From Bifidobacterium longum subsp. longum JCM 1217 (GTDB lineage: Bacteria > Actinomycetota > Actinomycetes > Actinomycetales > Bifidobacteriaceae), in assembly GCF_000196555.1 (NCBI RefSeq), contig NC_015067.1:1110001-1142000 (forward strand): 32,000 nucleotides of DNA, read 5' to 3'. The translations under genes were made by a program, and so were the position numbers. Below the pieces are notes generated by a model. It saw only the letters and a list, made by a program, of their open reading frames with translations. It made no database searches and had not been told where the DNA came from. Positions 6,772 to 20,590 of this stretch are shown here, in pieces; position 1 is the first letter of the stretch, and every line of letters starts with the position of its first letter.

Positions 6772-7971
6772 CTACTTGCGCTTGCCGAGGATGGCGAGCG
6801 CGATGGCCCCCGCGGCGAGCACCACCACGGCCACCGCAACGACCGCCACTGCGACGCCGGTGGAGGCGAGCCCGTCTTTCGGGGATTCGGCCTTGGCTTT
6901 GGCTCCGTTATGGAGATATTGCCCCGGCTTAGCCGGATCAGGCTTCGGCTTCGGGCGCCTCGTCATGGCCTTGACGTCCAGGTCCTCCATGGCGATAAGG
7001 ATGTTCTTTTGGGCGAGCCTTGTCGTGGTCTTCTCGATCCAGTCGTTCCGACGTCGGACGATACGGCCTTGCAGAGCGTTGAATCGGCTTAGCGTCTTTC
7101 GCCTGCGCTTGGAAACGAATTTAGCGGTCCTGCCGCTCCGTGCCTCGTTGACATGGTCCTGCCGGGCCATCCGGCGCTGAAGATACTTCAACCGTTTCAA
7201 TTCGGCCTTCGACGGCTTCGGCATGTCTTCGAACGTTCCATCAGACGAAGCGAGCGTATGTACACAGCCGCGGTCGAGGCCGATCGCGCCATCACCGGTC
7301 CTCGGCAACGGCAATGGCATGTTGACGAACACGAGGCTACGATGGGTCCAATCGACATGGACGCTCGTATACGGCCGTATCTCCTGACCGACACGCACAT
7401 GGACGATGATGCGCCAATGCGCCTTTTCGCCGGGTTTGACCCATCGCTTCGGGTTCATGCCTGTGATGACGACCACGTCGCTCTTCCGGCCGGTCTTATG
7501 GAATATGGCGTTGCCTGATCGGGAGGCGTTGCGCCAGCAGACGAAGCCCAGGCCGCGATGGCGCGACTTGAAGCCGGGGATGCGGCCTCCAATGGTCTTC
7601 CTGCGTTTGAGTCCGGCGAACCATTCGGTATTCTCGATCCTGTCCGTGCTGGACAGTATGGGCGCCGGAATGCCCGCCATCCACGAGCATTGAAGACGCG
7701 CCTCCCTGTCCGAGATCAACTCAGGTACGTCAGGGCCGCCCAAAGGCTCCTTGACCCAGTCGACGACTTCACCTGTCGCATCGTCTTTGACGGGCACGTT
7801 GCGCGTGCGTTGCTCGCGCCTTTGGTTGAATCTGGCGCGCCATCCGTCGCACAGCCACACCATGACGCGCTCGGGATTACGCGTCCAGCATGGGTTGCCG
7901 CAGCGGTCCACGCCGAGGAAGACGCTCGCGCCGGTGTGCTTGACGCCATTGATGCGGACCTTCTGGCTCAT
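6772..7971 (-). pseudogene. tnpB: 3'-truncated TnpB fused in frame to a cell-wall sorting signal
   Basis: TnpB hallmarks are present: IPGFKSRH, RuvC-I GLDRG and RuvC-II IAMEDLDVKAM. The zinc finger and RuvC-III are absent. The last 38 codons (about 6772..6888) read ESPKDGLASTG, then a hydrophobic helix, then GKRK. Confidence 0.75.
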
Positions 7972-9750: not shown

Positions 9751-9993
9751 TCAGATGGTTTTTGCGATGAGGCTGATTGAGACGATCAGCACGGCCCAGA
9801 GGATCGCGATGCCGACCGTCCAACGGTTCAGGTTCCTCTCCGCGACCCCGGAGGTGCCCGCGTTGGCGGTCAGGCCGCCGCCGAACATGTCGGACAGACC
9901 CCCGCCCTTGCCCTTGTGCAGGAGGATCAGCAGGGACAGCAGGACGCTCAGGACGGCGACGATGGTTTTCAAGACGATGACGAGAACGGTCAT
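9751..9993 (-). CDS. secG: preprotein translocase subunit SecG homologue
   Basis: MTVLVIVLKTIVAVLSVLLSLLILLHKGKGGGLSDMFGGGLTANAGTSGVAERNLNRWT... carries the diagnostic SecG LLHKGKGGGLSDxFGGG core plus a second TM helix. RBS GAAGGAAC. ATGA overlap with the upstream gene. Confidence 0.8.
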   Translation of the reverse strand: MTVLVIVLKTIVAVLSVLLSLLILLHKGKGGGLSDMFGGGLTANAGTSGVAERNLNRWTVGIAILWAVLIVSISLIAKTI

Positions 9994-10178
9994 GGGGTTC
10001 CTTCGTAATAGAAGACGACGATGATGACGATCAGGGCCGTCAGATACGCGACGGCCCAACGGCGATAGGTGCTGCGATGCTCCGGGTCGTCCGTCCATAC
10101 GCTCATGAGGAGGAACGCGGACGAGGCGATGAGCATCCATAGCAGCATGGCAAGGATCACGGGATGTGTTACCGTCAC
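9990..10178 (-). CDS. small membrane protein
   Basis: GTGA overlap with the upstream stop. Contains MLLWMLIASSAFLLMSVW...YLTALIVIIVVFYY. Confidence 0.45.
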   Translation of the reverse strand: MTVTHPVILAMLLWMLIASSAFLLMSVWTDDPEHRSTYRRWAVAYLTALIVIIVVFYYEGTP

Positions 10179-10387
10179 CCGAACACCATGAGCGTGAGTT
10201 CGCCGAACCCGAGATCCATGCCCGCGGCCAATATCATGGGCAGGATGACGAACACGAATGAGGTGATGCTCCAGGCCGGCCATTCGCGGGCGGCCGGAGT
10301 CGCGGTCTTGCGCAGTTCGTCCACGATCTGCCGGCAATATCGGCCTATCGGCTGAAACGGGTCTGATGCCAACGATTTCCTTTCCAT
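10175..10387 (-). CDS. small membrane protein
   Basis: Start MERKSL has a strong RBS, AGGAGGAAGC. The C-terminal half WSITSFVFVILPMILAAGMDLGF is hydrophobic. Confidence 0.45.
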   Translation of the reverse strand: MERKSLASDPFQPIGRYCRQIVDELRKTATPAAREWPAWSITSFVFVILPMILAAGMDLGFGELTLMVFG

Positions 10388-10405
10388 GCTTCCTCCTATG
10401 CGTCC

Positions 10406-10440
10406 GGAAAACGGAAAAGCCCCTCCCGCGCGGGAGGGGC
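10406..10440 (-). terminator. Rho-independent terminator at the downstream end of the tRNA array
   Basis: GCCCCTCCC-GCGC-GGGAGGGGC is followed on the minus strand by TTTTCCGTTTTCC. Confidence 0.6.
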
Positions 10441-10579
10441 GGAACCGTTCCGGCATGAGGAACGGCGGATGGGCCATGCGAGCAAAGGAATTCTTGTCCC
10501 GCGACCGGCTCATGCCACCGATCGCAGACTATCTCCCGTTCGGGAACCCGGCGTTTCGCATGTGGCCGCCGGGCCCATC

Positions 10580-10649
10580 GTGCTTCGACGGGATTCGAAC
10601 CCGCATCACCCCAAAAACGGGGCATCCTGACCGATTGAACGACGAAGCC
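10580..10649 (-). tRNA. tRNA-like sequence, probable pseudogene (UUU-type loop)
   Basis: Acceptor GGCTTCG/CGAAGCA with a 1-72 G.A mismatch. The T arm GCGGG-TTCGAAT-CCCGT is good. The anticodon arm is CCCC-GTTTTT-GGGG, giving a 6-nt loop (8 nt if opened), and the variable region is only 3 nt. Confidence 0.35.
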
Positions 10650-10910
10650 ATGTTGCGGATACGATGCTGGAGAGGCGGTTCCGTTCAGGCCACTGAGGTG
10701 CAGGCCTGCGCCTTGACCATCGTTCCACTCCGCCCCAATATGGCAGCGGGCGGGTGGCGGCGTTGACATCGTATTCGCAAGTTGGGTGCGGAAGCGGGCG
10801 CTGCAACGGTTACGGGTCCCAGTTATGAAGAGAACCTACCGTGGCATCGTTCCCTTTCCGGCAGACGTTCGAACCGGATCGGGCGGCGTTGACGCCCGTG
10901 TTTCCGCCAG

Positions 10911-10984
10911 TGCTTTCGCCGGGATTCGAACCCGGACCGGACAGTTCCTTGGATTGTCGCCTCTACCGGTTGGGCCACGAAAGC
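10911..10984 (-). tRNA. non-canonical tRNA, anticodon AAG (Leu-type) with C33 and short variable arm
   Basis: Acceptor GCTTTCG/CGAAAGC, discriminator A. T arm CCGGG-TTCGAAT-CCCGG. Anticodon stem ACAAT/ACTGT has one A.C mismatch. Loop is CCAAGGA. The D arm GCCCAACCGGTAGAGGC is shared with 13032..13104. Confidence 0.45.
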
Positions 10985-11402
10985 ATGCGCAGGCAATCCG
11001 CAGGGATATGCCCGCGCAGTCCACTGTGGATCCGGCCACTCGTGCCGAATCCTGCACTCATGCTTGCGGTGGACGCGCATACTGCAACACGAGGCATGAC
11101 AGGGATCACAGGGGCTGAACCCCCATGCTCCACCGAGACCGTTCCCACATCCTGTGGGTCGGCTGACAAGAAACGCGGTCGCCCGCGTTCCAGGAAACCT
11201 TTCCCGCACTGGGCGGATAGGCTTTATCGGATTCGCACCAACCCTTCCGACAGAGAGCTGTTCGCATCATCCACCCATAGGATGATGGGCGCTGACGATA
11301 TTCACGTGTCCGTCGAACAAACGGAGGCGTGAACCATCGGACACGACCCGCATGGTCATGACTGCCCCGCCGGGAACTCCCAACGGGCATGGAATCGTAT
11401 CG

Positions 11403-11474
11403 AGCGGTGTACGGGAATCGAACCCGCATCATCAGTTTGGAAGACTGAAGCACTGACCATTGTGCTAACACCGC
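11403..11474 (-). tRNA. tRNA-Gly (UCC)
   Basis: Acceptor GCGGTGT/ACACCGC, D stem GCAC/GTGC, anticodon stem TCAGT/ACTGA, loop CTTCCAA, T arm GCGGG-TTCGATT-CCCGT. Confidence 0.85.
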
Positions 11475-11513
11475 AAACAGGAATCCGCACACCGTATCAG
11501 AAGCGGATTCCTT

Positions 11514-11588
11514 AGCGGACGCCACGGGATTCGAACCCGGATCTCCACCCACAGGGGGTGGCGTGCTGCCATTACACCAGCGCCCCGC
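11514..11588 (-). tRNA. tRNA-like sequence, probable pseudogene
   Basis: The D and T arms resemble tRNA-Gly at 15227. The acceptor stem pairs over only 5 bp. The anticodon arm is CCACC-CCCTGTG-GGTGG, with C33 and U37. Confidence 0.3.
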
Positions 11589-11859
11589 ACGGGTCATGAA
11601 CTCCGTGCGTTCGCCTAGCCGTGATTCGTCAGGGTTGAGATCGGCTGGAACTCCGTTGCCCGTATCCGTGGAATGCTTTTTCATTCTGCAGATACCCCTT
11701 TCGTCGTGACGGTCAACTGAGACGACGCGCATCGAACGGCAGCACGGTACCGTGCCACCGTGGGTAGGAGCCATTCGCCGGGTCAGCGTCCGGCCCCTCT
11801 TAACCGTCCAATGGTTCTATTTTTTTAGGGTGCCGGAACCATCAAAGATATGGCACTCG

Positions 11860-11933
11860 TGCATTGCGCTGGAATCGAACCAACGACCTTCCCGTTATGA
11901 GCAGGGTGCTCTAACCGACTGAGCTAGCAATGC
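11860..11933 (-). tRNA. tRNA-Met (CAU), elongator-type or Ile2-type
   Basis: Acceptor GCATTGC/GCAATGC, D arm GCTC-AGTCGGTTA-GAGC, loop CTCATAA, T arm GTTGG-TTCGATT-CCAGC. Confidence 0.85.
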
Positions 11934-11937
11934 AAAG

Positions 11938-12010
11938 TGCCCAAGGCCGGAGTCGGACCGGCTGCGCCCGGTTTAGGAAACCGGCGCTCTATCCGTTGAG
12001 CTACAAGGGC
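11938..12010 (-). tRNA. tRNA-Arg (CCU), acceptor stem defective
   Basis: D arm GCTC/GAGC, anticodon stem CCGGT/ACCGG, loop TTCCTAA. The acceptor GCCCTTG/CTTGGGC has two U.U mismatches. The T loop is TCCGACT. Confidence 0.55.
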
Positions 12011-12105
12011 GTTGCCTCGTAATGCACGAACCGTACGAGGCGCGACGGCGTGAGAGAGAAGAGAAGAGAGAATCCGCTCATTATGGTTGACGGAGTTTTC
12101 GTGCG

Positions 12106-12178
12106 TGCCCTCAACGAGAATCGGACTCGTGGCCTTCCGCTCCGGAGGCGGACGCTCTATCCACTGAGCTACAAGGGC
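12106..12178 (-). tRNA. tRNA-Arg (CCG), copy 1
   Basis: Acceptor GCCCTTG/TGAGGGC (two G.U pairs), anticodon stem TCCGC/GCGGA, loop CTCCGGA, T arm ACGAG-TCCGATT-CTCGT. Identical to 13461..13533. Confidence 0.75.
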
Positions 12179-12283
12179 GTGGCGTCGTTTCGCGGCTTGG
12201 GTGACGCCTGACCCTGTATGTCCGGTACAACAAACATCGAATCGAGTGTAGAGGGAAAACCGATTCGACGTGCTGCCGCCAAG

Positions 12284-12354
12284 CTCCTCCTCCTGGATTC
12301 GAACCAGGACCAAAGGTTCCAAAGACCCGTGTGCTGCCGTTACACCAAGGAGGA
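12284..12354 (-). tRNA. tRNA-Gln (UUG)
   Basis: Acceptor TCCTCCT/AGGAGGA, discriminator G, loop CTTTGGA, T arm CCTGG-TTCGAAT-CCAGG. The anticodon stem has one mismatch. Confidence 0.7.
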
Positions 12355-12473
12355 ATGCGCGCGAACGCATCGGACACGTATGCCCGACTGCGTTCCGCCA
12401 TGCCGATCCAACCCGTTTTTTGCCGGCCGGATTCCAGGCCCTATCCCGTGGCCTATCACTGCAGATCGGCTAG

Positions 12474-12559
12474 CGGATGGTGCGAGAGTCGAACTCGCCA
12501 GGGACTTCCGCCCCAACAGTCTTAGCAGGACTGCGCCTTTGCCGCACGGCCCACCATCC
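12474..12559 (-). tRNA. tRNA-Ser (GCU)
   Basis: Acceptor GGATGGT/ACCATCC, anticodon stem CAGTC/GACTG, loop CTGCTAA, long variable arm, T arm GCGAG-TTCGACT-CTCGC. Confidence 0.85.
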
Positions 12560-12640
12560 ATGCCAGTGTTTGCGATTCAGGGGCACACCGGCCAAACCTC
12601 GATAAACCCCTCATGGGAACGATTTTCATGCGGGGGTTCG

Positions 12641-12725
12641 CGGAGTAGGGAGGATTCGAACCTCCGGGGGCTTGCACCCCTGCTGCTTTCGGGACAGTCG
12701 CATTCGACCGCTCTGCCACCACTCC
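12641..12725 (-). tRNA. tRNA-Ser (CGA) with C33
   Basis: Acceptor GGAGTGG/CTACTCC, long variable arm AGGGGTGCAAGCCCCC, T arm GGAGG-TTCGAAT-CCTCC. The anticodon stem ACTGT/GCAGC is weak. Loop is CCCGAAA. Confidence 0.6.
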
Positions 12726-12775
12726 ACCGATCCACACGAAGGAACAAACTGGTCGACGTATTCGTGCGGATCTCG

Positions 12776-12849
12776 TGCTCCCGGTGGGATTCGAACCCAC
12801 GACCATAAGGTTAGAACTCTTCTGCTCTGGTCCGCTGAGCTACGGGAGC
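12776..12849 (-). tRNA. tRNA-Arg (UCU), weak anticodon stem
   Basis: Acceptor GCTCCCG/CGGGAGC, D arm GCTC/GAGC, T arm GTGGG-TTCGAAT-CCCAC, loop GTTCTAA. Only 3 bp form in the anticodon stem. Confidence 0.6.
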
Positions 12850-13031
12850 AAGGTGGATGCCTACTTCGGTTCAGGAAAAGCGACAACCCTTTTCCAAAGG
12901 AGTAATTCGTTTTTTTTGGAATATTGTTGTTACTTAGGCATCCACGTTTTCCGCCTTCTTTTCGCGCGTGGTCTGCGGATACCACCGTATTTGCGATGTT
13001 GCGCTTACGCATGGCCTTGTGCCATGCGTCG

Positions 13032-13104
13032 TGTTCCCGGCAGGCTTCGAACCTGCGCCGAACGCCGTTTAGGGGCGTGCCTCTGCCGGTTGGGCTACGG
13101 GAAC
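13032..13104 (-). tRNA. non-canonical tRNA, anticodon UAA (Leu-type) with C33 and short variable arm
   Basis: Acceptor GTTCCCG/CGGGAAC, discriminator A, anticodon stem ACGCC/GGCGT, loop CCTAAAC, 5-nt variable loop, T arm GCAGG-TTCGAAG-CCTGC. Confidence 0.5.
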
Positions 13105-13334
13105 CTGGCCGACTGTTCCTCACCAAGGTCGACCTTCGTGGCCGATATCAACCTGAGCATCCCGCAAGAGAGAAGGAAATGGGATGCCGGTCATGGGGAA
13201 GAATGCGGGGCGATGGCTCCGGTCGAACAGCCGAAGAGAATAGAACATCCTTCAAACGACGATCGGAACCGGGTGGGACGGTATCATTCGGCTTGACGAA
13301 TCCGTGAGTAGTAAGGAGCCAAACGATACCGTCC

Positions 13335-13409
13335 TGGCGCGTCGGGTGAGTCTCGACCTCACACCCACCGGTTTTGGAGACCGGTACTCTGCCGTTAAGC
13401 TACCGACGC
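13335..13409 (-). tRNA. tRNA-Trp (CCA), CCA end encoded
   Basis: Acceptor GCGTCGG/CCGACGC followed by G-CCA, anticodon stem CCGGT/ACCGG, loop CTCCAAA, T arm GTGAG-GTCGAGA-CTCAC. Confidence 0.8.
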
Positions 13410-13460
13410 ATGTGGAGCAGGAAGCCGAAGATAGGCAGCGGAATAGCTTCCTGCTCCGAG

Positions 13461-13533
13461 TGCCCTCAACGAGAATCGGACTCGTGGCCTTCCGCTCCGG
13501 AGGCGGACGCTCTATCCACTGAGCTACAAGGGC
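13461..13533 (-). tRNA. tRNA-Arg (CCG), copy 2
   Basis: The 73 nt are identical to 12106..12178. Confidence 0.75.
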
Positions 13534-13624
13534 GATGGCACATTTCGTTCCTTTAACGACGTACGCCTGTGCCGGGCCGTGTTCGGCATGGTCCTCATTG
13601 ATGTCGCTCCGGAGACCATCGCTG

Positions 13625-13670
13625 CAAAAAGAGCGTCCTCCCCACCCGTCCTGAATGACGGATGGAGGGA
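13625..13670 (-). terminator. possible internal terminator or processing hairpin in the array
   Basis: An imperfect GC hairpin (CCCTCCATCCGTC...GACGGGTGGGGAGG) is followed on the minus strand by ACGCTCTTTTTGC. Confidence 0.4.
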
Positions 13671-13862
13671 ATCGGGAGACTGGATTGGGTTTTCACCAGC
13701 AACGTCGAGGACAAACGGGAAGGTTCAGATCCCCTCTGGACGTGCCGCATGTTCGGTCGCAAACCACCCTGCCGGGCCATGCTCGCCTTGGGCGTCCCGT
13801 TTTCGATACGCCTGTTCAGCCACTCCCATGAAAACGACTCATTGATCGGATGAACCGTTTCG

Positions 13863-13934
13863 TGCCTCCGTCTGAAATCGAACCAGCATCCACGGTGCTT
13901 CAGACCGTTGCTCTACCGTTTAAGCCACAGAGGC
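13863..13934 (-). tRNA. tRNA-Phe (GAA)
   Basis: Acceptor GCCTCTG/CGGAGGC, anticodon stem ACGGT/ACCGT, loop CTGAAGC, T loop TTCGATT. The T stem has one mismatch. Confidence 0.75.
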
Positions 13935-14098
13935 GCCGTGCGACGGACCGTCATGGGATCTGGGTTACAGGCCCTTCCCCGGTCCGTCGCACCAGTGTGT
14001 TTCCTTCCCCTGTTTCGCGCGCGGCCGGAGGAAGAAGCTGCCGCAGCCTATCTGATAATAGATTGATGCGCTTATGCATGGCGATGTACCAAGCATCG

Positions 14099-14174
14099 TG
14101 CCCCCCGTGGGATTCGAACCCACGACCACAAACGGATTAAAAGTCCGGTATTCTGACCGCTGAACTAGAGGGGC
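14099..14174 (-). tRNA. tRNA-Lys (UUU)
   Basis: Acceptor GCCCCTC/GGGGGGC, D arm GTTC/GAAT, loop CTTTTAA, T arm GTGGG-TTCGAAT-CCCAC. The variable region is unusually long at 8 nt. Confidence 0.75.
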
Positions 14175-14184
14175 TTTTCTGATA

Positions 14185-15075
14185 TCAAGCAACAGGAAGG
14201 AATTTTGAATTGCTTCCAATGCGCTCAGGGAACCTATCGTCGACGTTGAAAATCGAAACCTTGTTTCGAAGATTTCCTGCGGCGATGACCGCATCATTCA
14301 GATCTCGATATTCACCACCGTAGAATGTTTCCCCTTTTCGGGTTACATTGACTTGCCATCTTTTATCTTTGTTGGACCAGCTCACATTGAGATGGCCACT
14401 CCGTGAATTTGTTGTTGTCGAGATATTTTGACGATTTAATTCTTGGGTGCCGAGTCTCAAGTGATTTGGATTCACACATTTACGATTGCGGCAAATGTGA
14501 TCAATGATCAAGTCGTCTGGTATGAAACCATTGGCGATTCGATATGCGAATCGATGAGAACCGTAACGTTGGCCTCCATATCCGAATACTCCGTAGCCGC
14601 ATCTAAGAGAGCCCGTCCATTCCCAACAGCCGTATGTCATCCGCTGGACGTTAGACCAAAATCTGACAGCGTTCTGTCGATCGACTGGCTCATTGATGCT
14701 TTTACGTCCTCCACCTTCTTGAATGGGAAGATGAGGTAATAGATGATCAGGATTGAAACAAAGCGGATTTCCACAGATGTCATCCATCCAGTTGCAATCT
14801 CCCTCATCACCTTTGAATAAACGATAAGCTATCCTTTTCAGAGGAATGGACTCATTGTTTACATAGATGCACAAATCGGCTCGACTGTTGTCTTTCACGA
14901 TTACACACCCGTTATCCAATTGAGTGGTGAGCTCATCGAAGTCCTCCACAGAGAAAGACTTGTGATGTCTGAGTCTATGTATCGGCTTCCCTCGATACCA
15001 CTGCTGATAATGTCCGGTGCAAAATCCTCTTGCGAGAACCTTTTTGGCGCATCCCGGAAAGGTGCATTGTGCCAT
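14185..15075 (-). CDS. HNH homing endonuclease with AP2-type DNA-binding domain
   Basis: Start MAQCTFPGCAKKV with RBS AAGGAGAAAGGA. Two HNH-type motifs are present: CGNPLCFNPDHL and CRNRKCVNPNHL. The C-terminus NVSWSNKDKRWQVNVTRKGETFYGGEYRDLNDAVIAA is AP2-like. The gene is visibly AT-richer than its surroundings. Confidence 0.75.
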   Translation of the reverse strand: MAQCTFPGCAKKVLARGFCTGHYQQWYRGKPIHRLRHHKSFSVEDFDELTTQLDNGCVIVKDNSRADLCIYVNNESIPLKRIAYRLFKGDEGDCNWMDDICGNPLCFNPDHLLPHLPIQEGGGRKSINEPVDRQNAVRFWSNVQRMTYGCWEWTGSLRCGYGVFGYGGQRYGSHRFAYRIANGFIPDDLIIDHICRNRKCVNPNHLRLGTQELNRQNISTTTNSRSGHLNVSWSNKDKRWQVNVTRKGETFYGGEYRDLNDAVIAAGNLRNKVSIFNVDDRFPERIGSNSKFLPVA

Positions 15076-15226
15076 ATATTCCTTTCTCCTTGGGTATAAG
15101 AAAAAGAAAGCATGGAGTGTTTCGTTCCGTTTACGGTGTCCACCCACTTCGAGGTCGTGTTCGTTCATGCGTCTCCGGATTCCTCGGCACGAAAATCAAG
15201 GAATAATAGATATTGCATCCGGATAG

Positions 15227-15298
15227 AGCGGATGACGGGGTTCGAACCCGCGGTCTCCTGCTTGGGAAGCAGGCGTGCTGCCACTGCACCACATCCGC
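15227..15298 (-). tRNA. tRNA-Gly (CCC)
   Basis: Acceptor GCGGATG/CATCCGC, D stem GTGC/GCAC, anticodon stem CCTGC/GCAGG, loop TTCCCAA, T arm GCGGG-TTCGAAC-CCCGT. Confidence 0.85.
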
Positions 15299-15420
15299 GT
15301 CGCGGGGGACGGGCCGGCCGGCCCGCTGTCTCGCGTATTCCATTCCGGGGGCGCGCCGTCTTGACATGACGTCGTCCCTCGGAATGTCCGCGCTTACACG
15401 CGGCGGCATGCCGCGTGTCG

Positions 15421-15492
15421 TGGAGCCGGCGGGGTTCGAACCCGCGACCTTCCCGTTGCGGACGGGACGCCCTGCCACTGGGCGACGGCCCC
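15421..15492 (-). tRNA. tRNA-Ala (CGC) with C33
   Basis: Acceptor GGGGCCG/CGGCTCC includes the G3.U70 Ala identity pair. Anticodon stem TCCCG/CGGGA, loop TCCGCAA, T arm GCGGG-TTCGAAC-CCCGC. Confidence 0.7.
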
Positions 15493-15496
15493 GAAG

Positions 15497-15569
15497 CGCC
15501 CCTGACCCGATTCGAACGGGCGACACCCGGATCCGGAATCCGGTGCTCTGTCCCCTGAGCTACAAGGGC
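15497..15569 (-). tRNA. tRNA-Arg (CCG), divergent third copy
   Basis: Acceptor GCCCTTG/CAGGGGC, D arm GCTC/GAGC, anticodon stem CCGGA/TCCGG, loop TTCCGGA, T arm GCCCG-TTCGAAT-CGGGT. It lies 4 nt from tRNA-Ala. Confidence 0.8.
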
Positions 15570-15762
15570 GTGCATCCGCCATGCGACGGCATGCGTCCCC
15601 GCACTGGGCGGGGGGGATTAGGGCGGGATCATGGCGCTGGCATGGTCGCGGACGGGAGAATAAAAGAAGAAAGAACCCGTCTCGCATGCCATCGTTCCCG
15701 CACGCGCGGAGAGAAGAGTCCGGCGTCGCGTGCGGGCGGCGTTCACGCCATGAGCCGCTTCG

Positions 15763-15835
15763 AGCCCCGGGCCGGACACGATCCGGCGACCTTCCGCTTA
15801 CGAGGCGGACGCTCTACCGGTTGAGCTACCGGGGC
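15763..15835 (-). tRNA. tRNA-Thr (CGU) with unusual T loop
   Basis: Acceptor GCCCCGG/CCGGGGC, D arm GCTC/GAGC, anticodon stem TCCGC/GCGGA, loop CTCGTAA, T arm GCCGG-ATCGTGT-CCGGC. Confidence 0.7.
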
Positions 15836-15964
15836 GGATGCCGGAAACCCCCGGCCGTCCGGCGACGGCCCCCACGCGCCCGTCACGGGCCATGGGGCCG
15901 GACCGGGAGGCGGGCATGCCGTCGTCCGGTCCGAGGGGCGCGCCGTTTCCGCGGCACGGGCCTG

Positions 15965-16010
15965 CGCGCCATGGAGGAGTCGAACCTCCGTCTACGGTTT
16001 TGGAGACCGT
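15965..16010 (-). pseudogene. tRNA-Trp (CCA) 3' portion, disrupted by IS21
   Basis: The minus strand reads ...CAAAACCGT AGAC GGAGG-TTCGACT-CCTCC ATGGCGC G. It joins the fragment at 18600..18632 across the duplicated GAGACCGT. Confidence 0.7.
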
Positions 16011-16121
16011 GTGTTTTAGCAAGTTGGCGTCCGCTTTGTGAGCGGTGTTTTTCCGCAGTGTAGGCAGCGGGTTTTCCGCAGGGTGTGCGGTATCGGCCGC
16101 TGCCTGTCTGCGTTGTGTTGG

Positions 16122-16907
16122 TTATTTGGTCATGAGGGCGTGTTCGCTTCGGTAGGAGCGGCCCTCGAATCTGATGAGCCGTCCGTGGTGGACGGTGCGG
16201 TCGATGAGGGCGGCGGCCATGTTCTTGTCGCCGAGCACGCGTCCCCATCCGCTGAATTCGATGTTGGTGGTGTAGATGATGCTCCTTGTCTCGTAGGAAT
16301 CGGAAATGATCTGGAAGAGGAGCCTGCTGCCCTCCTCGTCTATGGGCAGGTAGCCGAACTCGTCGATGATGAGAAGTCGGGCCTTGCCGATGCTCGCGAG
16401 TTCCCGGTCGAGCCGGTTCTCCTGCTGGGCGCGGCGCAGACGCATGAGCAGTCCGGTCGCGGTGAAGAAGCGCACCGGGACGCCCCGCTCGCAGGCGAGC
16501 CGTCCGATCGCGATGGCCAGGTGGCTCTTGCCGGTGCCGACGGGCCCGTAGAGCACGAGGTCCTCGCATCCGGCGACGAAGTCGAGGTTCTCGAGCTGCG
16601 CGCGCCCCCAGTCGGCGGGCATCTTCAGGTTGGTCCAGTCATAGCCGTCGAGGGTCTTGTCGGCGGGGAAGCCGGCCTGTTTGAGCAGGCGCAGGCGTTT
16701 GGATCGCTCGCGCGAGTCGAGTTCGGCCGTGAACCATCGTTCGATGAAGTCGAGCTGGTTGGGCGTGGCCTCGGCGAGCGTGCCCGCGAGCACGCTGCGT
16801 GTCAGGGTCAGGCTGCGGCTCATCTTCAGGATCCTCTCGCTCTTCTCGGTCGTGGACGCGCGACGGCGGCGGGTCTCCGGGATCACCGGATCGGGTCTGA
16901 CGCTCAC
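16122..16907 (-). CDS. istB: IS21 helper ATPase IstB
   Basis: GTGA overlap with the istA stop. Walker A GPVGTGKSH, Walker B LLIIDEFGY, C-terminal DRTVHHG. Confidence 0.9.
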   Translation of the reverse strand: MSVRPDPVIPETRRRRASTTEKSERILKMSRSLTLTRSVLAGTLAEATPNQLDFIERWFTAELDSRERSKRLRLLKQAGFPADKTLDGYDWTNLKMPADWGRAQLENLDFVAGCEDLVLYGPVGTGKSHLAIAIGRLACERGVPVRFFTATGLLMRLRRAQQENRLDRELASIGKARLLIIDEFGYLPIDEEGSRLLFQIISDSYETRSIIYTTNIEFSGWGRVLGDKNMAAALIDRTVHHGRLIRFEGRSYRSEHALMTK

Positions 16908-18406
16908 CGTTCTTCCCCTCCGTCGTCCGTGCCGGTGATGAACCGGTCGTAGCCGCTCAGGTCGGGCTCCTCGATCCCGCCGGGGTATTCCCACTCGCCG
17001 TCGCGCATGCGCAACGCGATAGGGGTGAGCGAGTCCGCGTGCAGGCCCATGTCCCTGTTCGAGCGCAGGATCTCGCCGCACGCCTGCATCGCGGGATCGA
17101 ACCCGGCCGCCCGGCACGCGTCCCCGATCGCTTTGAGGCTCTCCCTCAACGTCTTTTCGTCCATGGAATCAAGCCACGCGCGTATATCGTCGGGCACGTC
17201 CGGGCGGATCGAGCTTTCCCGCCACGCGCGGGGTTTGACCGCGAGCCGGGGAAGCACGAGCGCGGGATCCTCCACATTGCGCGACCGTCCGTACTGTCTG
17301 GGATACTCCGCGAAGAGCTCGCCGGTGGCGGGCGAGGTGAGCGTGACCGTGTCCCACCGGATCGCGGCCAATACCCTGGAACGCGCCGAATCGGGGCCGG
17401 CGAGGTACCGGTTCGAGTCGATGTCGACCAGCCCGTACTTGTCGGCCGTCCGGCTTTCCCAGCGAACCGGGTCGAACGCCGTGGACGGCAACGGCATCAA
17501 CGCGGCCCTCTCCTCGTCGAACACCTCGGCCACGGGCACGTCCAGCAACCTCGGGCAATACGAGTCCCTGGCGAGCCCGTCGCACCGCTCCAGCAGGAGA
17601 CGGCTCAACTGCCCATACGATTCCGCGCGCATGGGCGGCACCATGAGATTGCGCCGCAAAAACCCGACCGCGTTCTCCACGCTGCCCTTCTCGTTGCCCG
17701 AATACGGGTTGCAGAACCGGACCTCGAGCCGGTAATGCGCCACGAACGCGGAGAACACCCCGGTCAACGCGACCTCGCCCTTCGCGTTGCGCCGGCCGGC
17801 ACCGGTCGCGTTGTCCATCACGATCACGGGAGGAACACCCCCGATATGCTCGAACACGAGCATCAGGCCATGGCACAGACACTCCGCGTTCTCGCCCGGC
17901 AACGCCACGCACAACCGCATGTTCGAATACGGCAACGAGACCACCAGGCAATGCACGTCCGCCATCTCGCCAGCGATCCGGGCCCGGGCCACGCCGAAAT
18001 CGACCTGCATGCTGCCCGCCGCCCACTCGAGCCGCACGTACCCCTCGCGATCCGGCACGCCGCGGTTCGCCTCGCGCCACCGGTGCACGTAACGCATCGT
18101 GGTCGAATACTCGCCGTCGTAATCCGTCTCCGCCAGCAGACGGTCGTGCACGCGCCTGATCGTGTGCCGCTGCTTCCTGGGCAGCAGACGATCGGCCTCC
18201 AGCCACTCGTCCACCAGATGCGCGTACGGGTCGATCTTCGACCCGTACCTGCGATCCGCCTTCGGCTTGGGCGAGCAATCCTCCATATCCGCGTACTTCG
18301 CGACCGTCCCGCGATCCACGTGAAGACGCCGCGCTATCTGCGCGCGCGACATTCCCTGCCGGTCGAGTCTCCTGATATCTTGCACAATGGGCATCGGTAT
18401 CGCCAT
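16904..18406 (-). CDS. istA: IS21 transposase IstA
   Basis: Start MAIPMPIVQDIRRL with RBS GGGAAGGAAAGGAAC. It has an N-terminal HTH (MSRAQIARRLHVDRGTV) and a DDE-type core (VDFG...VMDNATGAG...SGNEKGSVEN). Confidence 0.9.
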   Translation of the reverse strand: MAIPMPIVQDIRRLDRQGMSRAQIARRLHVDRGTVAKYADMEDCSPKPKADRRYGSKIDPYAHLVDEWLEADRLLPRKQRHTIRRVHDRLLAETDYDGEYSTTMRYVHRWREANRGVPDREGYVRLEWAAGSMQVDFGVARARIAGEMADVHCLVVSLPYSNMRLCVALPGENAECLCHGLMLVFEHIGGVPPVIVMDNATGAGRRNAKGEVALTGVFSAFVAHYRLEVRFCNPYSGNEKGSVENAVGFLRRNLMVPPMRAESYGQLSRLLLERCDGLARDSYCPRLLDVPVAEVFDEERAALMPLPSTAFDPVRWESRTADKYGLVDIDSNRYLAGPDSARSRVLAAIRWDTVTLTSPATGELFAEYPRQYGRSRNVEDPALVLPRLAVKPRAWRESSIRPDVPDDIRAWLDSMDEKTLRESLKAIGDACRAAGFDPAMQACGEILRSNRDMGLHADSLTPIALRMRDGEWEYPGGIEEPDLSGYDRFITGTDDGGEER

Positions 18407-18599
18407 GTTCCTTTCCTTCCCGAGCGCCGGCCGGCGGCAACCGGCCGAATCAAAACCGATTGGCAACTCGGGAATATACAGGCGGCGGCACCGATGCCTA
18501 TCACATCACCGGGAAACGATGACGACACCGGGGAAAACCATCAGCCCACACTACGGAAAAACACTGCCGAACCTGTCGAACAAACATTGAAGCAAAACA

Positions 18600-18632
18600 G
18601 AGACCGTCGGGCTGCCGCCGTCCCGATGGCGC
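18600..18632 (-). pseudogene. tRNA-Trp (CCA) 5' portion, disrupted by IS21
   Basis: The minus strand reads GCGCCAT CG GGAC GGCGGCA GCCC G ACGGTCTC. The acceptor complements ATGGCGC at 15966..15972. Confidence 0.65.
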
Positions 18633-18952
18633 GTTCATTGTTTCCGCTCTTCGGTTTTCAACCATGCCATGCCGGCCGTGTCCGCGGCGGCATGGCATGG
18701 TATGCGTCTCCGGACGGCAGGCCGACGGAACGCGTTCCGCCGGCCGAGTGGTTCCGGGCGGCTTCGCTCCGCCGGCCTGTCCGATTGATTCGGGCCGTTC
18801 CGCCGGATCGGGCTACGAAACCGACCGGAATCCCGTCGTCTCATGACCAGGTGTCATCCCGGCTTCCACCGTTCGCCGTCGATCCAATGGGACTGGCCTG
18901 ACAGGCGGATCAAACCGCCTGTCGTCGATCCGCCTGTTTGCGGCCAGGCGGA

Positions 18953-19037
18953 TGGTGGTGGCGGGAGGACTCGAACCTCCGGTGTTTCTCTGTCGCAGAG
19001 TTACAGTCTGCTGCCGTCGCCGCTGGGCCACGCCACC
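18953..19037 (-). tRNA. tRNA-Tyr (GUA), CCA end encoded
   Basis: Acceptor GGTGGCG/CGCCACC followed by A-CCA, anticodon stem GCAGA/TCTGC, loop CTGTAAC, long variable arm, T arm GGAGG-TTCGAGT-CCTCC. Confidence 0.8.
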
Positions 19038-19124
19038 GGTGCATCGCTTTTGCCCGTCACGGTGCGATGCGTACCGTGCCCGGTTCATCTGTGCCCGCAA
19101 GCTCATGGGAGATGGATCGGGTCG

Positions 19125-19497
19125 TGGAGCTGCCGGGAATCGAACCCGGGTCTGGCCTGCCGTCAACCATTGCTTGCCGTCACGTGCGTATCCGACGCTT
19201 GACGCTCATCCGTGGACGGGTGCGTTCGGCGAACCCGCACGGCTTGTAGACGATGTTCGTATGCTGGCCGGGCGAATCCATCGTCCGACTGTCCGACCAG
19301 TCCGATTCGAAGTTCTCCGGCTTTGACCCGTTAATCGGCAATGGGATCAAAGCCGGGTTTCACGCCGCGAGGGTGAAACGGGAAGAAGAAACGGTGTTGG
19401 CGTTCGTTCTTGTGGCAAGGTTGATGACGGTTGTCCCTGCCGGCCTCCGGCACGTAGCGAATGGTCTCCGGCAGGCCATCGAAAGCCTGTCAGCCCC
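19125..19497 (-). ncRNA. ssrA: tmRNA (SsrA)
   Basis: The 5' end is GGGGCTGACAGGCTTTCGATGG. The 3' end is ...CCGGGTTCGATTCCCGGCAGCTCCA. Together they form an Ala-type acceptor GGGGCTG/CAGCTCC with G3.U70. An internal reading frame GCC AAC ACC GTT TCT TCT TCC CGT TTC ACC CTC GCG GCG TGA encodes ANTVSSSRFTLAA. Length is 373 nt. Confidence 0.8.
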
Positions 19498-19736
19498 GTG
19501 ACATGGGTCGGATGGCGTGAACATCAGCCATCCGACCCATGTCTTCAATGCCGCCATCTTGCAGGGGTGGCGTCTGGTCCAAGGTCTTGTCCTCACGCCC
19601 ATGCGGGTATGAGTCGCCTTGGACAGGAATGTTTCTGATGTCGCTCTTCGGTTTTCAAGTCTCGTCGCCGACCGTCCGTGCGGTGGCATGCGACGGTATG
19701 CGTCCCCGGTCGCGGCGATCCCCTATGCGGGGGCGT

Positions 19737-20067
19737 GTATGCATTCCGGCCGGCCTGTATGCATCCGTATGCATCCGGGGATGCATACATCTTCTCTTCC
19801 CGTTTCGGCTTGGTTCCAACGTTCCGGGGATGGTCCGGGGGCGTGTATGCATTGTATGCATCATTCCCTTATAGGGGATTCGGGAAAAAGGAAGGAAACC
19901 CCTTATATTGATGCATACAATGCATACAAGAGAAAGGAATTCTGTTTTTCCCTTTATATATAAGGGTTTTCGGGCTTTTTCCAAGCCTTTTTTGTATGCA
20001 TCCCCGGATGCATACAGATGCATACATGCATACAAGACGGCCGGAAGAACTTCACAATGTTGTAAAG
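19737..20067. repeat. 331-bp iteron-rich direct repeat, copy 1 (candidate replication origin)
   Basis: Over 90 percent identical by eye to 20259..20590. It contains 12 copies of GTATGCAT/ATGCATAC in both orientations and an AT-rich core AGGAATTCTGTTTTTCCCTTTATATATAAGGG. Confidence 0.75.
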
Positions 20068-20135
20068 TCCGCGCATGCGGCTCCACGGCATCGCGAACCC
20101 CCCGGGGAGCCCGGCGAAACGGATCGGAGGATCGC

Positions 20136-20245
20136 TTGACGTCCTCCCCTCGGCTGAAGCCGGGGGATTCCTCCCATCCTGACGATGGGAGGAATCCCTC
20201 CCCACGCCTGAAGGCGGGGGCACCCTCACGGCAAAACGGTCGGGG
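20136..20245 (-). mobile_element. orphan IS200/IS605 right-end / omega-RNA-like module
   Basis: The minus strand ends GGAATCCCCCGGCTTCAGCCGAGGGGAGGACGTCAA, matching the right end at 2062..2100. This is preceded by a 14-bp perfect hairpin GGATTCCTCCCATC-GTCA-GATGGGAGGAATCC and by CCCCGCC-TTCA-GGCGTGGGG. No tnpB is adjacent. Confidence 0.55.
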
Positions 20246-20258
20246 CGGGCATCGGGGC

Positions 20259-20590
20259 TGTATGCATTCCGGTTCGCGTGTATGCATCCGTATGCATCCG
20301 GGGATGCATACGTCTTTTCTTTCCGTTTCGGCTTGTTTCCAACGTTCCGGGGATGGTCCGGGGGCGTGTATGCATTGTATGCATCATTCCCTTATAGGGG
20401 ATTCGGGAAAAAGGAAGGAAACCCCTTATATTGATGCATACAATGCATACAAGATAAAGGAATTCTGTTTTTTCCTTTATTTATAAGGGTTTTCGGGCTT
20501 TTTCCGGGCTTTTTCTGTATGCATCCCCGGATGCATACAGATGCATACACGCATACAAAACGGGCCGGAAAACTTTACAATATTGTAAAG
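20259..20590. repeat. 331-bp iteron-rich direct repeat, copy 2
   Basis: See copy 1. The offset between copies is 522-523 bp. Copy 2 ends 52 bp upstream of the primase-helicase start. Confidence 0.75.

Follow-up and report, generated by a model that had tools for sequence, protein, structure and literature searches.

A tRNA gene array of the pMP7017 megaplasmid type in the chromosome of Bifidobacterium longum JCM 1217

Introduction

The 20 tRNA genes of the megaplasmid pMP7017 form three tandem transcription units; 17 of the genes are highly transcribed, as is the tmRNA of the same plasmid (PMC10832533). Its authors observed that several of the expressed tRNAs match codons that are rare in host and plasmid alike (PMC10832533). 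In B. longum, 50–64 chromosomal tRNAs are the norm and megaplasmids bring 14–26 more (PMC5758520); for strain JCM 1217, 76 tRNAs have been reported, whereas most complete B. longum genomes have 55–60 (PMC4537262). Publications of 2015, 2018 and 2024 have already covered the array, how it is transcribed, its tmRNA and the explanation by codon supply; the array analyzed here is real, not new. We describe the copy found in a 32,000-nucleotide stretch of JCM 1217 DNA (the window).

Results

We identified the locus as the tRNA array unit of a mobile element of the Bifidobacterium conjugative megaplasmid type, of the pMP7017 family. Gene order was common to the window and six B. longum and B. breve megaplasmids, with 87–91% identity in the aligned parts, and the same tRNA order recurred in five complete megaplasmids that were analyzed closely and in ten IMG/VR contigs. 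Megablast matches were to B. longum and B. breve megaplasmids, together with short matches in five unrelated plasmids that were the size of a tRNA or an IS21 element and covered no more than 1% of the query. A preliminary description had likened the array to the translation kit of a megaplasmid or a large actinophage. Homology, synteny and the adjoining tmRNA bear out the megaplasmid half of this comparison. The array has no close phage relative: megablast yielded no phage match, and the arrays of large actinophages showed only generic tRNA-level similarity (70–80%).

This copy of the array lies inside the B. longum chromosome, within an island of megaplasmid-like DNA. The window matched the B. 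longum contig FNRW01000002.1 (621 kb) at 100% identity, and its proteins were found on records of 2.34–2.40 Mb. Set against the chromosomal norm and the megaplasmid contribution cited above, the array therefore constitutes an accessory second set, of megaplasmid type, in agreement with the initial view that it is not a core chromosomal tRNA operon.

ARAGORN accepted the candidate genes, identifying 21 tRNA genes that all share the minus strand with the other RNA features, the hairpin, the insertion sequence and the endonuclease gene described below. Their first start and last end (10580–19037) were exactly the limits first proposed, and a tRNA-Trp split by an IS21 element, restored on in silico removal of that element, brought the total to the 22 or so genes expected (2.6 per kb over 8,458 bp). 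At the gathering threshold, Rfam RF00005 supported 19 of the 21 (32–72 bits); at an E-value threshold the Leu-UAA gene was gained, and tRNA-Ser(GCU) matched the related tRNA-Sec model. The very short spacers noted earlier (about 4 nt) were seen at two sites, with 3–4 nt between Arg-CCU and Met (11934–11936) and between Arg-CCG and Ala (15493–15495). Two spacer segments taken in the preliminary description for tRNA-like debris (10660–10745 and 10840–10905) did not bear that reading out: the isolated spacer gave zero tRNA matches even at E ≤ 10, and comparison with the array tRNAs gave nothing significant (best E = 0.4).

The anticodons originally assigned to the canonical genes were all reproduced by ARAGORN (Rfam scores in parentheses). 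Among array tRNAs, CCA is encoded only in tRNA-Tyr(GUA) (18953–19037; 54.7 bits) and the intact copy of tRNA-Trp(CCA) (13335–13409; 59.3 bits), the other Trp copy being the split one. The Tyr gene is kept in the five complete megaplasmids L001–L005 and in the IMG/VR contigs L012, L018, L019 and L021. The tRNA-Thr(CGU) gene (15762–15835; 66 bits) is a window-type allele, unlike the Thr-CGU of the plasmid family. Three genes encode tRNA-Arg(CCG): one at 12105–12178 (63.1 bits), its exact duplicate at 13460–13533, already recognized as identical, and a distinct third copy at 15496–15569 (58.8 bits). tRNA-Arg(CCU) (11937–12010; 53.3 bits) has two U·U mismatches in its acceptor stem. The remaining members are tRNA-Ala(CGC) (15420–15492; 60.5 bits), with G3:U70 and C33 in the anticodon loop; tRNA-Gly(CCC) (15226–15298; 70 bits) and tRNA-Gly(UCC) (11402–11474; 71.7 bits); tRNA-Lys(UUU) (14098–14174; 62.3 bits); tRNA-Phe(GAA) (13862–13934; 52.9 bits); tRNA-Gln(UUG) (12283–12354; 56.1 bits), with U1-A72 and G73; and two serine tRNAs with long variable arms, Ser(CGA) (12640–12725; 45.7 bits), which has C33, and Ser(GCU) (12473–12559; tRNA-Sec clan member, 43.8 bits), which is almost invariant throughout the megaplasmid family. 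The tRNA with anticodon CAU (11859–11933; 61.3 bits), first read as Met, is not initiator-like and represents either elongator Met or a precursor of Ile2. The canonical members have intact identity elements: G3:U70 for Ala, U1-A72 and G73 for Gln, G73 for Trp, U73 for Gly and the long arms for Ser.

Four or five members of the array are non-canonical and probably not ordinary decoders. The two oddities with Leu anticodons were recovered, both with a short variable arm in place of a long one. The UAA gene (13031–13104; ARAGORN; Rfam 42 bits) combines C33 with a Leu-like D stem of 3 bp; its AAG paralogue (10910–10984; ARAGORN) has C33 and an A·C mismatch in a stem, and scores 43.9 bits in Rfam compared with 55–56 bits for the plasmid copies. 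Taken together, the two genes showed covariation at 9 of 21 pairs. The gene at 12775–12849 (Rfam 58.8 bits) was called “Pyl-CUA” by ARAGORN, which reflects a one-base register shift; homology sides with the original reading as Arg-UCU, here with a collapsed, thermodynamically unstable anticodon stem. Both members earlier judged degenerate were likewise found. One (11515–11585; ARAGORN; Rfam 32 bits) is Gln(CUG)-like, with C33, U37 and a T stem of 4 bp, and is kept across the family. The other (10580–10649; ARAGORN “???”; Rfam 37.5 bits) has a 6-nt U-run as its anticodon loop, is the homologue of the pMP7017 “tRNA-OTHER” (tRNA18; PMC10832533 Table S5), and is probably not a decoder. C33 occurred in 5 of the 21 genes. 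We found no mention of its frequency in the array, or of the focusing of variation on anticodon stems, in the cited accounts of the megaplasmid array.

This copy is in flux and has partly decayed, with its non-canonical members, a split gene and two replacements. The interrupted Trp gene of the preliminary description was confirmed: an IS21-family insertion sequence (16011–18599; Pfam rve/Mu-transpos_C_2 and IstB_IS21; gene calls), with istA at 16904–18406, istB at 16122–16907 and imperfect terminal inverted repeats, is flanked by an 8-bp target duplication, ACGGTCTC, at 16003–16010 and 18600–18607. The 5′ part of tRNA-Trp(CCA) (18600–18632), delimited by in silico excision, holds the acceptor 5′ strand, the D arm and the 5′ side of the anticodon arm, its final 8 nt being the target-site duplication; the 3′ part (15965–16010; partial Rfam tRNA match at 15967–16028, 24.7 bits) holds the anticodon loop, T arm, acceptor 3′ strand and G73. 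Joining 18632–18600 to 16002–15965 gave a 72-nt tRNA-Trp that ARAGORN accepted, and L007 carries an uninterrupted copy.

Alignment with L001 and pMP7017 showed that a free-standing HNH endonuclease gene of 327 aa (14185–15168; Pfam HNH_3, 5e-15; PHROG 3593, 4e-50) and the adjoining, linked window-type Lys-UUU allele stand where the family has a spacer and its own Lys-UUU allele. GC content is locally low around the HNH gene, at 46.5% over 14001–15000. By family comparison, the Arg-CCG duplicate at 13460–13533 occupies the slot of a plasmid Arg-ACG gene, and the flanks are homologous; this arrangement indicates gene conversion. The cited accounts of the megaplasmid array were found to mention neither the HNH cassette nor gene conversion between Arg genes.

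The neighboring tmRNA that had been pointed out was identified by Rfam at 19122–19497 (RF00023, 93.9 bits), adjoining the array as in pMP7017-family plasmids. Its tag reading frame, ANTVSSSRFTLAA followed by a stop, is the same as the published pMP7017 tag (PMC10832533). The G3:U70 pair is retained and CCA is not encoded; aligned with L001 and pMP7017, the window copy has a deletion of ∼21 nt. A manA-like RNA motif (13669–13841; RF01745, E = 1.7e-6) scored 36.2 bits, short of the gathering score of 55.2, as the motif also does in pMP7017 and L001; it occupies the same Phe-Arg slot as the pMP7017 manA motif (PMC10832533 Table S5). Directly past the last tRNA-like gene, a pattern scan located a terminator-like GC-rich hairpin (10419–10440) of 9 pairs, 8 of them G-C, with the T-rich tail TTTTCCGTTT; judged from its sequence, it is likely the end of the array transcript.

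The 6,086 codons of 23 genes in the window were counted and set against the reference values in Table S6 of PMC10832533. Usage in the window exceeded that in the B. breve chromosome for CGG (.26 versus.10), AGG (.16 versus.04), GGG (.19 versus.07), AGC (.41 versus.20), ACG (.41 versus.24) and GCG (.38 versus.23), and array-cognate codons were enriched overall (p = 1.6e-4, within-family permutation test). The triplicated Arg-CCG matches CGG, which is one of the two codons with the strongest enrichment. These data support codon supply for the six codons. TCG and CAA showed no enrichment in the 23 genes. The early suggestion that the set favors rare-codon decoders held for AGA, AGG, GGG, GGA, CGG, UUA and CUU, which are rare in the host, but not for TTC, TAC and CAG, which are major codons.

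Several observations count against codon supply, among them the remark of the pMP7017 authors on doubly rare codons cited above. When the B. longum values of Table S6 served as the reference, enrichment was weak (p = 0.12), and B. longum is the presumed natural host. The two short-arm “Leu” tRNAs, for which codon supply is not supported, read the barely used TTA and CTT (0.00 and 0.05 of Leu codons in the element). Finally, the Arg-UCU allele, the gene at 10580–10649, the Gln-CUG-like gene and the C33 genes look, from their sequences, unfit for decoding.

Discussion

The transcription evidence comes only from RNA-seq of the pMP7017 homologue, from which we infer a mechanism for the chromosomal copy; expression, processing and charging of its tRNAs are putative. 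A few polycistronic units would be transcribed from the tmRNA/Tyr end toward the hairpin (10440–10419), and host enzymes, RNase P and those of 3′ processing, would release the tRNAs. Because only two genes encode CCA, the host CCA-adding enzyme would supply it to the others, and canonical members, with their intact identity elements, would be charged by host synthetases.

Taken as a whole, the explanation by a megaplasmid-type array that resides in the chromosome as a partly decayed copy and serves codon supply appears to us moderately probable. The added tRNAs would provide more decoders for codons used more by the element than by the host chromosome (CGG, AGG, GGG, GGA, AGC, ACG, GCG and AAA), and the tmRNA would provide extra ribosome-rescue capacity.

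Gene Content of the Array

Twenty-one tRNA genes were predicted by ARAGORN within 10580-19037, all on the minus strand, and the extent given in the preliminary description, which had recognized an array of about 22 tRNA or tRNA-like genes from the sequence alone, proved accurate to the base. The Rfam tRNA model recovered 19 of the 21 genes at its curated threshold, with scores of 32-72 bits; the Leu-UAA gene (42 bits) was added at the E-value threshold, at which Ser-GCU matched the related tRNA-Sec model. Together with a tRNA-Trp gene split by an insertion sequence (IS), the array amounts to 22 genes, four or five of which are non-canonical. These 22 genes in 8,458 bp correspond to a density of 2.6 per kb, or ~3.7 per kb without the 2.6-kb IS21 element, and both values exceed those that define a tRNA array unit (at least 20 genes and at least 2 per kb; PMC4758250). 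Only 12 amino acids are covered. A full-length tmRNA gene lies on the strand of the tRNAs at 19122-19497; it was detected by Rfam (93.9 bits) and missed by ARAGORN, also at a relaxed threshold.

All anticodons that had been read by eye were reproduced, among them Arg-CCU and the three Arg-CCG genes, of which two are identical; ARAGORN alone differed at one gene, 12775-12849. The very short spacers noted at the same time were seen as well, at 3-4 nt. The claim of further tRNA-like debris at about 10660-10745 and 10840-10905 gained no support, as neither stretch gave a covariance-model match at E<=10. Similarity of these stretches to any of the array tRNAs was not found, and the spacer is simply conserved among relatives (93-95%).

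Homology to the pMP7017 Family of Megaplasmids

Megablast of window positions 10000-20000 returned extended plasmid matches to six Bifidobacterium longum and Bifidobacterium breve megaplasmids of 169-198 kb, among them pMP7017 of B. breve JCM 7017. These matches covered 27-44% of the 10-kb query and were 87-91% identical to it, and five other plasmid matches each covered at most 1% of the query. According to ARAGORN, array order is common to five complete megaplasmids and ten IMG/VR contigs, with indels and replacements, and the megaplasmid arrays consist of co-oriented genes with Tyr and tmRNA at the array end. The window shares with this family the confinement to a single strand and the order Tyr ... 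Gly-CCC, Lys, Phe, Arg, Trp, Leu-UAA, Arg-UCU, Ser, Ser, Gln, Arg, Arg, Met, Gln-like, Gly-UCC, Leu-AAG and tRNA-like, as well as the same odd members annotated as "tRNA-OTHER" in pMP7017. The tmRNA tag read from the alignment, ANTVSSSRFTLAA, is the tag published for pMP7017 (PMC10832533). An RNA at 13669-13841, in the interval between Phe and the next Arg as in pMP7017, scored 36.2 bits with the Rfam manA model, against a gathering threshold of 55.2. The motif also scored under gathering in pMP7017 and in L001, one of the complete megaplasmids, and it is therefore named manA-like here. These homologous megaplasmid arrays bear out the preliminary interpretation in kind, namely that of a translation kit of a mobile element, and place it in the megaplasmid type.

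In 2015, Bottacini reportedly gave 14 tRNA genes for pMP7017. This plasmid is a conjugative megaplasmid (PMC10832533, PMC8313286), and Dineen 2024 (PMC10832533) re-annotated it with 20 tRNA genes in three tandem transcription units, found 17 of the 20 and the tmRNA to be highly transcribed, described the manA motif, and argued that the tRNA pool is adapted to plasmid codon usage. Its array tRNAs are 74-90% identical to host chromosomal tRNAs or have no counterpart among them (PMC10832533 Table S5). Megaplasmids of 15 B. longum strains carry 14-26 tRNA genes, and the chromosomes 50-64 (Odamaki 2018, PMC5758520). The array with its tmRNA, its transcriptome and the codon-supply reading are thus already known for this homologous locus.

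Chromosomal Location and Neighborhood

The family locus is on a plasmid, whereas the window locus is chromosomal. NCBI contig FNRW01000002.1 (621 kb) matches the window at 100% identity. The HNH protein and another protein of the window were found on contigs of 2,385,658 and 2,403,825 bp, and two more window proteins lie at ~1.13-1.18 Mb of CP139157.1, CP137052.1 and CP049767.1, which are of complete size (2.34-2.39 Mb). By Pfam, the neighbor of the array is a gene for a DUF5906/Prim-Pol protein and not RepA/RepB. The Prim-Pol neighbor and the chromosome-size records therefore identify the locus as a relative that is integrated, rather than as a copy on a plasmid. The megaplasmid-type island lies in the chromosome of the B. 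longum type-strain lineage, at ~1.11-1.18 Mb. Past both window ends, as far as 10 kb from the window genes, the flanks still look like mobile-element DNA, with an FtsK/SpoIIIE-type gene (~4 kb past the right end) and a PD-(D/E)XK gene on one side and WhiB, LemA/TPM and sortase genes on the other. With regard to a plasmid backbone (type IV secretion, partitioning, RepB), the FtsK/SpoIIIE-type gene was the sole candidate in these flanks.

Strain JCM 1217 has 76 tRNA genes, and most complete B. longum genomes have 55-60 (PMC4537262); the count of 76 is explained by the chromosomally integrated megaplasmid array. Dineen 2024 allowed for "a megaplasmid or integrated element" in 43 of 375 B. longum strains (PMC10832533). 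Exact patterns for Ser-GCU and for the tmRNA tag gave 0 matches each among the GTDB representatives, with one genome per species. The array is therefore not a chromosomal feature conserved across the genus.

In the megaplasmids the array adjoins RepA; the Prim-Pol gene and 300-nt TGTATGCAT modules stand in that place in the window. The two modules, at 19731-20030 and 20254-20553 between the primase-polymerase gene and the tmRNA, are direct repeats of each other with 94% identity, and both are packed with direct and inverted TGTATGCAT copies. This repeat region, across which a 210-aa open reading frame is called (19655-20287), may be an iteron- or origin-like region or one that binds a regulator. 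On the other side of the array, small paralogues of secE (10175-10387) and secG (9751-9993) follow directly after its terminator-like hairpin; in the plasmids they are located on the other side of RepA, beside DivIVA-like genes. Several genes of housekeeping type are thus present on the mobile element as duplicates. At 6772-7971, 2.6 kb past the array, there is a gene for a TnpB protein (OrfB_IS605) of 399 aa, and the arrays of the plasmid relatives are flanked or interrupted by TnpB, IS30, IS110 and ISL3 elements. In a promoter scan, sites were no commoner than in shuffled sequence, and no promoter is claimed.

Canonical Members and Proposed Codon Supply

About 15 of the 21 unbroken genes are canonical, with a 7-nt anticodon loop, U33 and a purine at position 37. 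Identity elements could be read in the sequence, namely G3:U70 in Ala, U1-A72 and G73 in Gln, G73 in Trp, U73 in Gly and long variable arms in both Ser tRNAs; CCA is encoded only by Tyr and the intact Trp. In the Thr(CGU) gene at 15762-15835, the window type has the T loop ATCGTGT in place of TTCGAAT. Its T54/A58 appear swapped to A54/U58, which could keep the reverse-Hoogsteen pair.

Codon usage of 23 window genes (6,086 codons) was compared with published fractions (PMC10832533 Table S6). The fractions in the window and in the B. breve chromosome, respectively, were.26 and.10 for CGG,.16 and.04 for AGG,.19 and.07 for GGG,.15 and.11 for GGA,.41 and.20 for AGC,.41 and.24 for ACG,.38 and.23 for GCG, and.30 and.22 for AAA. 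Codons cognate to the array were enriched relative to the B. breve chromosome (p=1.6e-4, permutation within codon families), and the same enrichment was weak relative to the B. longum column (p=0.12). The three Arg-CCG genes fit CGG; this codon and AGG are the two that show the greatest enrichment. The codons of two Leu-like tRNAs, Leu-UAA and Leu-AAG, are hardly used by the element (TTA.00, CTT.05). For the canonical members, codon supply is therefore the function with the best support, but the whole set is not explained by it.

Non-canonical Members and a Possible Role in Protection of Translation

The two Leu-like genes, Leu-AAG at 10910-10984 and Leu-UAA at 13031-13104, are paralogues that are conserved throughout the family and have a variable loop of 4-5 nt and no long arm. 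Their 3-bp D stem and D loop are those of a type II tRNA-Leu, for which the bona fide Leu-CAA of the plasmids serves as comparison. The cloverleaf is kept in nine distinct alleles, and changes on both sides of a pair occur in 9 of 21 pairs. Structural selection acts on the Leu-like tRNAs, or did so until recently. In the Leu-UAA homologue at ~7,700 of L018, one of the IMG/VR contigs, an extra C creates an 8-nt anticodon loop, CCCTAAAC, and ARAGORN calls a 4-base anticodon.

Two further genes correspond to the "tRNA-OTHER" entries of pMP7017: the Gln-CUG-like gene at 11515-11585 (C33, U37, 32 bits) and the gene at 10580-10649, which has a 6-nt U-run loop of variable length among relatives. C33 replaces the near-universal U33 in 5 of the 21 window genes (Ala-CGC, Ser-CGA, Leu-UAA, Leu-AAG and the Gln-like gene) and in 20 of 122 distinct sequences of the family. 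The two bases are polymorphic in Leu-AAG (on two stem backgrounds), Met#2 and Arg-ACG.

Among the alleles of the window, the five complete megaplasmids (L001-L005), L007 (contig QSBG01000007.1) and the ten IMG/VR contigs (L012-L021), the anticodon stem was the most variable part of the tRNA, with changes at 25% of sites compared with 11% in the other stems. This excess (Fisher p=2e-6; Wilcoxon per tRNA p=0.03) is driven mostly by four tRNAs, with counts that ignore phylogeny and one Arg group that mixes paralogues. The changes are mostly compensatory, and whole stems are replaced in Leu-AAG, Leu-UAA, Arg-UCU and Leu-CAA.

The main rival to codon supply holds that the array and its tmRNA sustain translation when host tRNAs are cleaved or inactivated by anticodon nucleases, defense systems or the toxins of toxin-antitoxin systems. 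The element would then provide substitutes for host tRNAs, or tRNAs insensitive to nucleases, and additional capacity for ribosome rescue, as has been proposed for phage tRNAs (PMC10264068, PMC11555353, PMC11464382). The variable anticodon stems and C33 are in keeping with this idea, as are the location of the tmRNA with the array and the presence of classic nuclease targets (Lys-UUU, five Arg genes and Tyr). A gene for an "RNA ligase family protein" just upstream of the plasmid arrays recalls tRNA repair in T4, and pMP7017 expresses the translation-targeting toxins RelE, TacT and HipA (PMC10832533 Table S3). However, the window has no RNA ligase gene, and an anticodon nuclease for Bifidobacterium is neither known nor identified. 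Relaxed selection would equally yield C33 and weak stems, and it is an equally simple reading of the variability of the anticodon stem. The codon match of the canonical members, moreover, is not predicted by a role in protection. The support is circumstantial, and we regard protection of translation as possible but rather unlikely.

A narrower form of this idea concerns the Leu-like tRNAs, the C33 members, the Arg-UCU allele and the U-run gene, which would be selected as nuclease- or toxin-resistant tRNAs or as decoys and would not be decaying decoders. The excess of anticodon-stem substitutions would in that case reflect diversifying selection. We consider this very unlikely.

Remodeling of the Array

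An IS21-family element with istA and istB (Pfam) and imperfect terminal inverted repeats occupies 16011-18599 and is flanked by an 8-bp direct duplication, ACGGTCTC. When the element and one duplication were removed in silico, joining 18632-18600 to 16002-15965, a 72-nt tRNA-Trp(CCA) accepted by ARAGORN was restored. The 22nd gene, which had been described as an IS-disrupted Trp, is therefore real. The Trp of the plasmid family is not split in this way, and an intact Trp lies at the same place in the IS-free L007, a 163.7-kb contig from a close relative. L007 lacks tRNA-Tyr and tmRNA; the stretch between the end of its Trp gene and the repeats that lie upstream of the primase-polymerase gene is deleted. 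Because L007 is without it, the tmRNA is dispensable for the element.

A second change involves an HNH endonuclease gene at 14185-15168 (327 aa; Pfam HNH_3; PHROG 3593, E=4e-50), which lies in a patch of 46.5% GC. The best relatives of its product are in actinophages (~37% identity), and the exact protein sequence occurs in 158 blocks of a public contig collection. The HNH gene and a different Lys-UUU allele (14098-14174) replace the family spacer and Lys gene of L001 and pMP7017. Across 13935-15230, plasmid homology breaks off right past Gly-CCC and is found again from within the 3' acceptor strand of Lys. The pattern resembles that expected of endonuclease-driven homing with co-conversion of a tRNA gene. 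The window Lys allele was seen once without the endonuclease, in L017, an IMG/VR contig.

Third, the slot of the Arg-ACG gene of the plasmids (13400-13640, compared with 10985-11225 of L001) holds an exact copy of the Arg-CCG gene at 12105-12178, so that the window has a second Arg-CCG in place of Arg-ACG. Both flanks are homologous to the plasmids, and the switch points are within the shared acceptor stem. The arrangement indicates gene conversion within the array, between paralogues with an acceptor stem in common. The window further differs from the family in a Trp-Thr-Arg-Ala block that replaces Pro-UGG, in the absence of Cys, Pro, Leu-CAA and distal Thr and Ala genes, and in a tmRNA deletion of ~21 nt. 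A metagenomic contig, L010 (ENA NODE_106, 10,358 bp), is a perfect palindrome with two inverted copies of the array, which is most likely an assembly artifact.

These events bear on another explanation, in which tRNA genes are selfish or neutral cargo: being cheap, easily recombining and hot spots for IS and homing endonucleases, they would hitch-hike on a successful mobile element, and the chromosomal copy would be decaying. The Trp split by IS21, the array segment replaced by the HNH cassette and the gene conversion all agree with it. So do the stem mismatches in the Leu-AAG and Met of the window, the lower score of Leu-AAG relative to its plasmid counterparts, the collapsed Arg-UCU stem, and a gene content that varies in nearly all relatives, including the loss of Tyr and tmRNA in L007. 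Most members nevertheless keep perfect cloverleaves and identity elements, although spacers are ~10% divergent, and compensatory changes hold the stems together even in the Leu-like tRNAs. The codon match is significant against B. breve, and 17 of the 20 homologues in pMP7017 are highly transcribed (PMC10832533). Neutral cargo fits the visible decay of the chromosomal copy, but it is at odds with cloverleaves that are conserved and with a plasmid homologue that is highly transcribed, and we judge it quite unlikely as an account of the array.

The Gene at 12775-12849

At 12775-12849 ARAGORN reports "Pyl-CUA", and the preliminary description had read Arg-UCU. Taken at face value, the ARAGORN call would make the gene a natural amber suppressor in an element that uses UAG read-through or recoding. 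ARAGORN calls the anticodon CTA not only in the window but also in 10 of 16 related arrays, the loop UUCUAAC gives U33 and A37 in the CUA register, and the gene scores 58.8 bits as a tRNA in Rfam. However, the slot holds a clean tRNA-Arg(UCU) in six relatives, namely pMP7017, the complete megaplasmids L004 and L005 and the IMG/VR contigs L015, L020 and L021, which sides with the earlier assignment. The remainder of the molecule is nearly identical and TTCTA is invariant; there are four alleles of the anticodon arm, and two stem pairs have changed compensatorily in the UCU register. The CUA register needs a one-base shift and two nucleotides between the D and anticodon stems, and its first pair is broken in the megaplasmid L003. 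For the window allele, the stemless form is more stable (-25.1 kcal/mol) than either register (-24.7 and -23.2 kcal/mol), and the isolated anticodon arm does not fold, as compared with -8.8 for the arm of pMP7017. TAG is the stop codon of 5 of the 23 window genes, and an in-frame TAG interrupts none of the 23. With no stable stem and no internal TAG, an amber suppressor or pyrrolysine tRNA was rejected as a register artifact, and suppression of UAG by this gene is hardly credible. The gene is read as a derivative of Arg-UCU, probably one of doubtful function.

Phage Records

The possibility that the array came from a prophage or phage-plasmid and not from the conjugative-plasmid lineage draws on the filing of ten array-bearing contigs as viral in IMG/VR, on the match of the HNH endonuclease and the primase-polymerase to phage families, and on the arrays of similar size in large actinophages, with 70-80% similarity at the tRNA level. 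It is extremely improbable, given that positions 10000-20000 had no megablast match in 50,697 phage records, that a distant search yielded only tRNA-sized matches of 70-80% identity, that virion, terminase and tail genes were not found among the window proteins scanned, that the extended nucleotide matches are all plasmids, and that the flanks carry FtsK/SpoIIIE, sortase and pilin-type genes. The ten IMG/VR contigs (L012-L021, 17-187 kb) are listed as viral, yet the family to which they belong is that of a conjugative megaplasmid. The listing is likely to be an error of classification, unless it points to phage-like modules on other parts of the element.

DISCUSSION

Because the pMP7017-type array with its tmRNA, its transcriptome and its interpretation as codon supply are already documented, the main finding adds little to them. 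What the window contributes is an integrated and remodeled allele in the B. longum type-strain lineage, together with several small unreported details. IS insertion, gene conversion and a cassette with a homing-type endonuclease are actively remodeling the array. A sizeable minority of the members depart from the canonical structure and are conserved nonetheless.

Clusters of tRNA genes in large phages include ones with homing endonucleases, such as the segB region of T4. The Bifidobacterium array resembles such clusters in its dense tRNAs, spacers of a few nucleotides and non-canonical anticodon loops, in a free-standing HNH endonuclease that lies inside the array beside a substituted tRNA allele and, in the plasmid relatives, in an RNA ligase nearby. 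Unlike these clusters, it is not a phage array, and its host has no known defense nuclease. It is also comparable to the tRNA array units of prokaryotes (Tran 2016, PMC4758250) and of Mycobacterium, where they are found on plasmids, phages and chromosomes (Morgado & Vicente 2018, PMC5966550). The operational definition, the association with mobile elements, the variable content and an actinobacterial host are shared. The likeness drawn here is one of organization, and the Bifidobacterium array differs in having a tmRNA and only 12 amino acids. An accessory tRNA operon of another phylum is likewise reported to be horizontally spread, to duplicate the chromosomal set and to include non-canonical members.

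Codon supply accounts best for the canonical members, and the sole route to a surprise is through the non-canonical tRNAs. As a species, B. longum is of major importance both in the infant gut and as a probiotic. Should the non-canonical members prove to be nuclease-resistant or decoy tRNAs, they would be of real interest for plasmid-host conflict in B. longum, and the idea of tRNAs as counter-defense, developed for phages, would extend to an element, conjugative or integrated, from a commensal of the human gut.
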